From an uncultured Actinomycetes bacterium (lineage in GTDB: Bacteria > Chloroflexota > Dormibacteria > Aeolococcales > Aeolococcaceae), in NCBI GenBank assembly GCA_964618935.1, contig CAZUDL010000001.1, positions 66,562 through 130,561 on the forward strand: a stretch of 64,000 nucleotides of DNA, given 5' to 3'. How positions within the stretch are numbered: position 1 is the stretch's first letter; each line of letters opens with the position of its first letter. Position numbers and translations under genes: made by a program. This document shows, piece after piece, positions 10,622 through 10,685 of the stretch. The notes beneath the pieces were generated by a model. It had not been told where the DNA came from. It saw only the letters and a program-made list of their open reading frames with translations, and did not search any database.

Positions 10622-10685
10622 TGGTGCCAGATTGGCATGGGACTGACTTGACATGGCATCATACTGATGCCATACTGGCACCATG
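10622..10685 (+). promoter_or_regulatory. Sigma-70-like promoter with nested palindromic operator directing a leaderless transcript
   Basis: TTGACA (10648-10653), a 17-nt spacer, CATACT (10671-10676), then 6 nt to the ATG at 10683. The spacer is exactly the palindrome TGGCATCA-TAC-TGATGCCA (10654-10672). Outer arms TGGTGCCAG (10622-10630) and CTGGCACCA (10675-10683) are also inverted. Five TGGCA(T/C) half-sites in all. Confidence 0.6.

Follow-up and report, generated by a model that had tools for sequence, protein, structure and literature searches.

A predicted leaderless promoter overlaid by a putative array of ribbon-helix-helix operator units in Toastrack-linked operons of Dormibacterota and Actinomycetota

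The 64-kb stretch of contig CAZUDL010000001.1 analysed here (the window) carries, at positions 10622-10683, a 62-bp block that is at once a promoter and a putative operator. It lies directly in front of a gene whose product is a ribbon-helix-helix (RHH) protein, which is followed by genes for a DUF4097/Toastrack protein and for an ATP-binding cassette (ABC) exporter (Table 1). Five copies of a single near-palindromic word are laid over the promoter, and the RHH protein is their predicted reader. Taken as a whole, a model in which the first gene is transcribed as a leaderless mRNA and an array of RHH dimers represses its own promoter appears probable to us. The promoter geometry, its deep conservation and the covariation between the ribbon of the protein and the operator units were all established in silico.

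In a consensus scan, the block contains the sole sigma-70-like site between positions 9500 and 14500, with 10 of 12 matches and a TG in front of the -10 hexamer, where shuffled sequences are expected to give 0.0 such sites. A preceding sequence-only reading had placed TTGACA and CATACT 17 nt apart and the ATG of the first gene 6 nt after the -10 hexamer; read directly, sequences and coordinates are correct, with the ATG at 10683-10685. The spacer (10654-10670) is 17-18 bp long across the family, the -10 element is of the extended type (TG-C-CATACT, 10668-76, with the TG at 10668-69), and the local GC content dips to 58% in the block, compared with about 75% around it. Two other promoter classes were considered and rejected. 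The sigma-54 pattern (TGGCAC-N5-TTGCW, -24/-12) has no match in the window even at one mismatch, and there is no -12 element. Promoters of the MerR type have a 19-20 bp spacer with a palindrome, as opposed to the 17 bp found here, and there is no MerR gene among the neighbouring genes.

The regulator has more than 6000 detectable relatives, the closest of which are found in metagenome-assembled genomes (MAGs) of Candidatus Dormibacterota, which makes this phylum the probable source of the window. Eighty loci from reference genomes, 80 from metagenomes and two annotated Streptomyces plasmid loci were sampled, start positions being set by tblastn coordinates; 79 genome loci entered an alignment anchored at the ATG (A of ATG = +1), and 159 loci had enough upstream DNA for the counts that bear on leaderless transcription. 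In about 160 loci from Dormibacterota and Actinomycetota, Streptomyces among them, the same promoter-operator layout, conserved base by base, precedes the RHH and DUF4097/Toastrack pair. The alignment is nearly free of gaps between about -62 and the ATG, and upstream of that point the sequences can no longer be aligned; conservation in the closest relatives begins exactly at the first base of the outermost operator unit (unit E). Among the 79 genome loci, information content rises from near zero to 1-2 bits per position precisely from -35 to +1, with a weaker signal at -61..-54 and -50..-45, and the consensus reads TTGACA-TGGCACCA-NNN-TGGTGCCA-TAN-TGGTGCCATG.

The same alignment predicts the transcription start. 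A(-11) is found in 78/79 and T(-7) in 77/79 loci, and the TG at -15/-14 in 68/79 and 74/79, respectively; these are hallmark bases of an extended -10 element in the canonical register for a +1 at the ATG. In 147/159 loci a hexamer of the form NAnnnT ends exactly 6 nt before the start codon, which is ATG in 157/159, and a TTG begins at -35 (106/159) or at -36 (43/159; 149 together). A tetramer resembling a Shine-Dalgarno sequence (GGAG, GAGG or AGGA) was not found between -16 and -4 in any of the 159 loci. Codon-periodic conservation sets in right after the ATG (M1, L3 and Y6 are invariant), and the NCBI/PGAP annotation of the Streptomyces homologues places the start at the same ATG. The sequence features of a leaderless sigma-A/sigma-70 promoter, A(-11) and T(-7) that put +1 on the start codon and no Shine-Dalgarno sequence, are present here. 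The predicted +1 in the window is A10683, and if transcription begins at the A of the ATG the regulator would be translated from a leaderless mRNA, as the sequence-only reading had proposed; the exact 6-nt gap and the missing Shine-Dalgarno sequences lend that proposal comparative support.

The half-sites and palindromes of the block all reduce to one 8-bp near-palindromic word, TGGYRCCA, in five copies, three of them core units (A, B and C) and two upstream units (D and E). The units keep an 11-bp phase and thus share one face of the helix; the single skipped 11-bp slot is occupied by the -35 hexamer, which is flanked by units D/E on one side and unit A on the other. The core units cover the spacer, the -10 element and +1: unit B takes in the TG of the extended -10 and reaches two bases into the -10 hexamer, and unit C spans the discriminator and the predicted transcription start. 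Strict matches to the unit occur at the five positions with the frequencies given in Table 1 and are nearly absent from the rest of the +/-300 nt examined. Of the five units, the two upstream ones are the weakest and show the least conservation. Units in the D position cluster at -50/-51, covary with the ribbon type, and leave a trace in the alignment (G(-49) in 64/79, G(-48) in 51/79 and C(-45) in 53/79 loci).

The sequence-only reading had described these repeats differently. Its 19-nt palindrome is real (ATGGCATCA-TAC-TGATGCCAT, 10653-10673, with 9-nt arms that are 100% complementary), but it does not coincide exactly with the spacer, as had been stated, since it fills the 17-nt spacer and 2 nt of the -10 hexamer. 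The inverted pair said to bracket the promoter also exists, with longer arms than were reported (17 nt, 10622-10638 and 10667-10683, 88% complementary), and the repeat finder returned in addition a direct repeat, TGGCATnnnACTGA, at an offset of 21 nt. Five TGGCA(T/C) half-sites do fall within 62 nt (10624-29 on the minus strand; 10633-38 and 10654-59 on the plus strand; 10667-72 on the minus strand; 10676-81 on the plus strand), but the functional unit would rather be the 8-bp near-palindrome that recurs every 11 bp. The palindromes are by-products of this repetition.

Covariation between protein and DNA is the strongest evidence for the RHH protein as the candidate reader of the units. Residue N120 of the regulator is the ribbon residue homologous to N11 of Arc. 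Most ribbons in the family are of the type RxNxR (RINLR, RVNLR, RINVR or RINFR; 133 loci), 20 loci have RxTxR, and two have RISFR. RITLR, RMTLR and RLTLR accompany units of the TGACGTCA type, RTTLR accompanies TGGTGTCA or TGACACCA, and RISFR accompanies mixed units, all units of one promoter changing together with the ribbon. When unit type was scored on the better-conserved half of each core unit, N-type loci had GCCA in 323/379 cases (85%) and T-type loci had GTCA in 55/59 (93%). At the symmetric positions 3 and 6 together, the ratio is 613:136 for the N type and 38:78 for the T type (Fisher test, 7e-26, kinship not corrected for). The upstream units follow the same division, with 41 GCCA against 7 GTCA in N-type loci and 4 against 17 in T-type loci. 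The T and S states occur in several clades (T in 4-5) and require 6 changes by Fitch parsimony on a neighbour-joining tree built without the ribbon columns. Even one such switch needs parallel substitutions in three to five units, which is sensible only if one protein reads all of them.

The positions that covary lie symmetrically around the centre of the 8-mer, and the central pyrimidine-purine step is free (TG, CA, CG or TA). This favours a single dimer on each unit, its dyad at the unit centre. Sites centred on the junctions between units (GCCA-N3-TGGC) would also fit in the window. In the family, however, units A and C are equally conserved in their outer and inner halves, and junction-centred sites are further disfavoured by the symmetry of positions 3 and 6 about the unit centre and by the 8-bp palindrome that is bound by MetJ (PMC3413123). 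Dimers centred on the units are therefore the arrangement that we prefer.

Variation in the array was seen in two subgroups. Six metagenome loci whose proteins start with MELxxY (L092, L110, L119, L123, L127 and L131) have units A and C that read GAGCCA and TGGCTCA, while unit B remains TGGTGCCA and the ATG is 2 nt further from the -10 hexamer (..TGGCTCACATGG). The ribbon in this subgroup is still RINLR, so a determinant besides residue 120 must lie behind the variant in A and C. In 4 of the 10 loci of the RINFR subfamily, the RHH gene itself contains a two-unit motif resembling the operator, at +224 to +278, where the variable linker is encoded (L059:4261-4279, L089:1167-1185, L128:1779-1797, L145:577-595 and 619-637); the background in the neighbouring gene is 1/142. 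This motif may be an auxiliary operator or an effect of composition.

Table 1. Promoter elements, operator units and genes in the window (positions in the 64-kb stretch; index relative to the A of the regulator ATG).
Feature	Position	Strand	Remarks
Upstream operator unit E, TGGTGCCA	10622..10629	+	Index -61..-54; matching 8-mers at -61/-62 in 20/80 genome loci
Upstream operator unit D, TGGCATGG	10633..10640	+	Index -50..-43; left half alone fits the unit; strict match 9/80 at -50
-35 hexamer TTGACA	10648..10653	+	Consensus scan; alignment: T 75/79, T 67/79, G 65/79
Core operator unit A, TGGCATCA	10654..10661	+	Index -29..-22; upstream half of spacer; strict match 50/80 at -29
Core operator unit B, TGATGCCA	10665..10672	+	Index -18..-11; strict match 58/80 at -18
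-10 hexamer CATACT	10671..10676	+	A(-11) and T(-7), counted from the A of the ATG
Core operator unit C, TGGCACCA	10676..10683	+	Index -7..+1; strict match 67/80 at -7
Regulator gene, 179 amino acids	10683..11222	+	N-terminal helical domain (about 1-78), disordered linker, C-terminal RHH, conserved tail ...YTGWAR
DUF4097/Toastrack (LiaG-like) gene	11300..12154	+	No membrane segment; start probably ATG 11300 (MASFDTPEP...), AGAGG 8 nt upstream; alternative ATG 11237
DrrA-like ABC transporter ATPase gene	12189..13001	+	Shine-Dalgarno sequence GAAGGAGAAGGA before ATG 12189
DrrB-like ABC-2 permease gene	13011..13772	+	Member of the DrrAB-like pair, present in most genome loci

The regulator was identified as an RHH protein from its C-terminal third only (about residues 117-157). 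Here, a ribbon with alternating outward polar or basic residues (S117-P124, SRINLRMP, 11031-11054, with N120 at 11040-11042) is followed by two helices, which are joined by a G-x-S turn (G139-L140-S141) whose S141 never varies and whose G139 is conserved to at least 90% (26 and 101 homologues). In RHH proteins a G-x-S/T/N turn joins the two helices and anchors helix 2 on the phosphate backbone (PMC2812701). The RHH part of the Pfam HicB family covers residues 118-148 (22 bits against a cut-off of 21), and a profile of 26 homologues gave weak matches in the PDB to the DUF1778/KacA antitoxins, Arc and Mnt, the best to DUF1778 (E about 0.03). In the profile alignment with Arc (residues 6-41), SRINLRMP stands opposite PQFNLRWP. 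The fold points the same way: an AlphaFold2 model from 101 homologues contains helices at 125-137 and 142-156 (predicted local distance difference test score, pLDDT, 74-87), and of the 35 PDB matches obtained with Foldseek, most, including the entire top of the list, were RHH proteins (Arc 1par/1bdv/1myl, AtaR 6gts, KacA 5zgn, CopG 1ea4 and AmrZ 3qoq), superposed with a root-mean-square deviation of 0.6-1.0 A over about 40 residues, target-normalised TM-scores of up to 0.89 and E-values of 0.6-8.

Outside this domain the protein is unlike Arc, so that the "Arc-type" protein of the sequence-only reading is apt for the C-terminal domain and not for the rest of the 179 residues. The model begins with a helical hairpin that is predicted with confidence (4-54), followed by a weakly predicted beta hairpin (64-77); the linker (79-118) and the tail after the RHH helices are disordered. 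No Pfam family matched the N-terminal 88 residues, and Foldseek returned no structural match for the N-terminal domain. RefSeq names the Streptomyces homologues "toxin-antitoxin system HicB family antitoxin", "YlcI/YnfO family" or "hypothetical", a poor fit to their domain content. The match to HicB is limited to the RHH part, and the neighbour is DUF4097 in 80/80 loci and never hicA; as both the HicB N-terminal domain and a hicA neighbour are absent, the label "HicB family antitoxin" is a misnomer.

Based on these data we suggest the following mechanism. A housekeeping-sigma promoter within the block would fire at the A of the ATG and yield a leaderless mRNA. An RHH dimer would sit on each TGGYRCCA unit, its antiparallel ribbon R118-x-N120-x-R122 reading the bases. 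The core units at -29, -18 and -7, one helical turn apart, cover the spacer, the -10 element and +1, so an occupied array would shut out RNA polymerase, and the in-phase units at -50 and -61, which flank the -35 hexamer, would probably add cooperativity. The outcome would be negative autoregulation of the RHH-Toastrack-ABC exporter operon. The sequence-only reading had also suggested tight autorepression by the RHH product, of which the autorepression is strengthened in silico by the ribbon/operator covariation and by the conserved block in about 160 loci. The tightness of repression, the transcription start, the stoichiometry and cooperativity of binding, and repression rather than activation are the parts of this scheme that we infer.

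Several observations weigh against autorepression by such an array. The covariation is imperfect: 15% of the better-conserved halves in N-type loci are GTCA, mostly in unit C before the ATG, and a Pseudonocardia acaciae locus (L069) combines an N-type ribbon (RINFR) with GTCA-rich units. The counts are per locus and not per independent event, and a neighbour-joining tree of a 180-residue protein is noisy, which makes the number of independent N/T switches uncertain. The conservation of unit B is partly explained by promoter function (extended -10 TG, -10 hexamer), and unit D in the window is merely half a unit. The AlphaFold2 model as a whole has low confidence (pLDDT 59.7; predicted template-modelling score 0.30), and the E-values of the sequence and fold matches to RHH proteins are weak because the RHH domain is short. 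The literature gave no mapped transcription start, binding assay or expression data for any member of the family, and no transcriptome data for this organism or a homologue turned up.

Of the other explanations for the array, the one that we would discard last, though we consider it unlikely, accepts the RHH protein as the reader and makes the array activating or dual in role, either because dimers on units D and E recruit polymerase or because the Toastrack protein converts the repressor into an activator, for which AmrZ-type RHH factors offer a precedent. Two in-phase units upstream of the -35 hexamer do occupy a typical class I/II activator position, and the poor -35 elements of some clades (TTGCGT or TTGCAG, in the RVNLR group) might need help. 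These upstream units are nevertheless the weakest and least conserved, whereas the three best-conserved units lie over the spacer, the -10 element and +1 and must compete with RNA polymerase, and the promoter in the window is so near to consensus (10/12, extended -10) that it should need no activator. An unlinked transcription factor might instead bind the units, leaving the RHH protein otherwise employed, for example as an antitoxin-like partner of the Toastrack protein. The binding of the RHH protein to the units is itself deduced, and at least in L069, where a GCCA-type orphan operator (see below) coexists with the GTCA-rich promoter of the local RHH gene, more than one reader may exist. 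A separate reader seems quite improbable all the same, since motif and RHH gene go together in two phyla, the other constant neighbour, DUF4097, has no DNA-binding domain, and such a reader does not predict covariation of the ribbon residue equivalent to Arc N11 with positions 3 and 6, which is seen in all units of a promoter at once.

A structural role of the nested inverted repeats at the nucleic-acid level, whether as a DNA cruciform or, in a transcript with a leader, as an RNA hairpin (an attenuator or processing site), is very improbable. The region 10618-10700 does fold stably as RNA (-33.4 kcal/mol, z = -3.4, with 0/200 shuffles as stable). However, the complementarity of units A and B is perfect in 32/140 loci and that of A and C in 30/140, and many loci have uncompensated mismatches (e.g., TGGCACCA/TGATGCCA), which means that no stem has been selected and that the repeats are just three copies of a near-palindromic word. 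The repeats also lie upstream of the predicted +1, an Rfam scan of the region was empty, and no T-tract terminator is present. Finally, a chance cluster or a generic genome-wide repeat has nothing in its favour except that GC-rich palindromes are generally common in high-GC genomes, and its probability is negligible. TGGCAY occurs 40 times in the 64-kb window, and the densest cluster in 300 first-order Markov simulations held 3 copies against the 5 observed (Poisson 5e-10 for one 62-nt window). A search for further regulon sites, a check which the sequence-only reading had named, found no second two-unit site in the window, and in a scan of 841 kb of related loci the two-unit motif was rare elsewhere, with one orphan operator, in L069. 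The simulations, the window scan and the conserved position in about 160 loci refute a chance origin.

We return to autorepression and to the genes that it would govern. The RHH gene and DUF4097 are the sole genes always linked to the motif (80/80): DUF4097 follows the RHH gene directly in 78/80 genome loci and comes after the ABC genes in the other two, and a DrrAB-like pair lies downstream in most. The linkage had been remarked on in a survey of phage shock protein (PSP) and Toastrack systems, which describes an actinobacterial operon of Toastrack, ABC ATPase and permease genes with an RHH factor in place of GntR (PMC11237479). The motif words gave nothing in the literature, and this neighbourhood remark was the sole find when DUF4097 was sought together with RHH or HicB, or Toastrack together with leaderless. 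Our best guess is that the always-linked Toastrack protein modulates the repressor through the conserved C-terminal tail or the N-terminal domain. Two loci that appeared to encode an RHH-Toastrack fusion (L072:4001-5446 and L076:4001-5491) were rejected as evidence for such an interaction: the normal tail and stop (...YTGWVR* or ...YVGWAR*) can be read in a different frame, which marks the two loci as frameshifts in long-read MAGs, due to assembly error or a pseudogene, and not fusions.

Both ends of the operon in the window were also inspected. Upstream, an open reading frame (ORF) for 150 amino acids on the same strand (10032-10484) matches nothing in Pfam or NCBIfam and is missing from all 80 related genome loci, and there is no terminator-like site between it and the promoter; it may not be a real gene. 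Downstream, a gene with a RibD_C (dihydrofolate-reductase-like) domain lies on the same strand 45 nt past the permease (13818-14393), a homologue is similarly placed in L049, and this may be a fifth gene of the operon. Elsewhere in the window, two tandem tRNA-Met (CAT) genes (27025-27099 and 27165-27238, 66 nt apart) are the only Rfam/ARAGORN matches.

In other genomes the cargo of the promoter differs. Two Streptomyces plasmids (NZ_CP108116, L161:3440-3503; NZ_CP026305, L162:3440-3503) have the same promoter/operator and RHH-DUF4097 pair, followed by a cytochrome P450 gene, with or without a ferredoxin gene, in place of the ABC exporter. In P. acaciae (NZ_JIAI01000010), an orphan three-unit operator (TGGCGCCA-TAG-TGATGCCA-TAG-TGGTGCCA, L069:1881-1910) with a -35-like TTGCTG stands about 45 nt upstream of a stand-alone DUF4097 paralogue (start at L069:1956), which precedes a cytochrome P450 gene and has no RHH gene attached. 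The paralogue has a Shine-Dalgarno sequence and thus is not leaderless. The units of the orphan operator are of the GCCA type, whereas those at the promoter of the RHH gene that lies 2 kb downstream (RINFR) are GTCA-rich.

That arrays of RHH dimers repress their own genes is textbook knowledge, and conceptually there is no new principle here: this would be an autorepressor array in the style of Arc and CopG, in a very large family. The arrays of the minimal RHH autorepressors CopG (pMV158) and Arc and Mnt (P22) likewise lie over the repressor's own promoter. CopG is the closest geometric precedent, its four dimers binding cooperatively on one face, one helical turn apart, over its own promoter and excluding RNA polymerase (PMC2724298). 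The ribbon INLRMP is nearly the FNLRWP of Arc, and Arc and CopG are among the best fold matches. By contrast with these repressors, the regulator described here has 179 residues, with an extra N-terminal helical domain, a disordered linker of roughly 40 residues and a conserved C-terminal tail, and it is encoded on the chromosome in Dormibacterota and Actinomycetota, with 3 + 2 units, a predicted leaderless promoter and genes for a Toastrack protein and an ABC exporter.

Met-boxes abut, with a period of 8 bp, and MetJ requires the corepressor S-adenosylmethionine. The units described here are 11 bp apart, and the window protein is itself of the N type (RINLR with TGGYRCCA). The T-type members (RITLR with TGACGTCA) nevertheless share with MetJ the basic-I-T pattern and the GACGTC core, and would likewise place one dimer on each 8-bp palindrome. 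In MetJ the ribbon KKITVSIP recognises the 8-bp palindrome AGACGTCT, and a ribbon moved from one RHH scaffold to another can take its specificity with it (PMC3413123).

RHH antitoxins (RelB, AtaR/KacA of DUF1778, ParD) are similar in that an RHH autorepressor stands first in the operon. In these antitoxins a disordered region with a conserved short motif binds the partner encoded by the next gene, which tunes operator binding; in the case of RelB, RelE acts as such a co-repressor (PMC2812701). Here, however, there is no toxin domain, the partner gene encodes a Toastrack beta-helix protein, and the RHH domain is C-terminal rather than N-terminal. The gene neighbourhood is that of the actinobacterial operon noted in the survey of Toastrack-linked operons (LiaFSR/LiaG and GntR-Toastrack-ABC; Ravi et al. 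2024, PMC11237479), which gives no operator, promoter, transcription start or DNA specificity. The Toastrack protein described here lacks a membrane anchor.

The promoter would be a clean example of a regulated leaderless promoter whose operator includes +1. More generally, the analysis provides a concrete cis-element and a candidate recognition rule for a family of more than 6000 detected relatives that are routinely mislabelled "HicB antitoxin", and that appear to govern Toastrack proteins together with ABC exporters of the drug type or P450s, both in Actinomycetota of the soil and in Dormibacterota, an uncultured phylum. It thereby offers a handle on the function of Toastrack-linked operons. 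The natural switch of the ribbon from N to T, with a matching switch of the operator, is a ready-made specificity-swap system and a possible source of orthogonal repressor/operator pairs for high-GC hosts.

A further and more tentative idea, which we hold to be possible though on balance doubtful, is that the RHH protein works as a partner-switch sensor together with the Toastrack protein, which is cytoplasmic, in a manner that resembles the conditional cooperativity of antitoxin and toxin without a toxin. The Toastrack beta-helix would bind the YTGWAR tail or the N-terminal domain of the regulator and, on a drug-like or envelope-derived signal, release or stabilise the array. If so, the signal would switch on an interchangeable detoxification cargo (DrrAB-type exporters, or P450 and ferredoxin in Streptomyces and Pseudonocardia). 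The more than 6000 relatives would then constitute a widespread family of stress switches in soil Actinomycetota and Dormibacterota, whose DNA recognition could be read from sequence, a ribbon N corresponding to G:C and a ribbon T to A:T at positions 3 and 6 of the unit.

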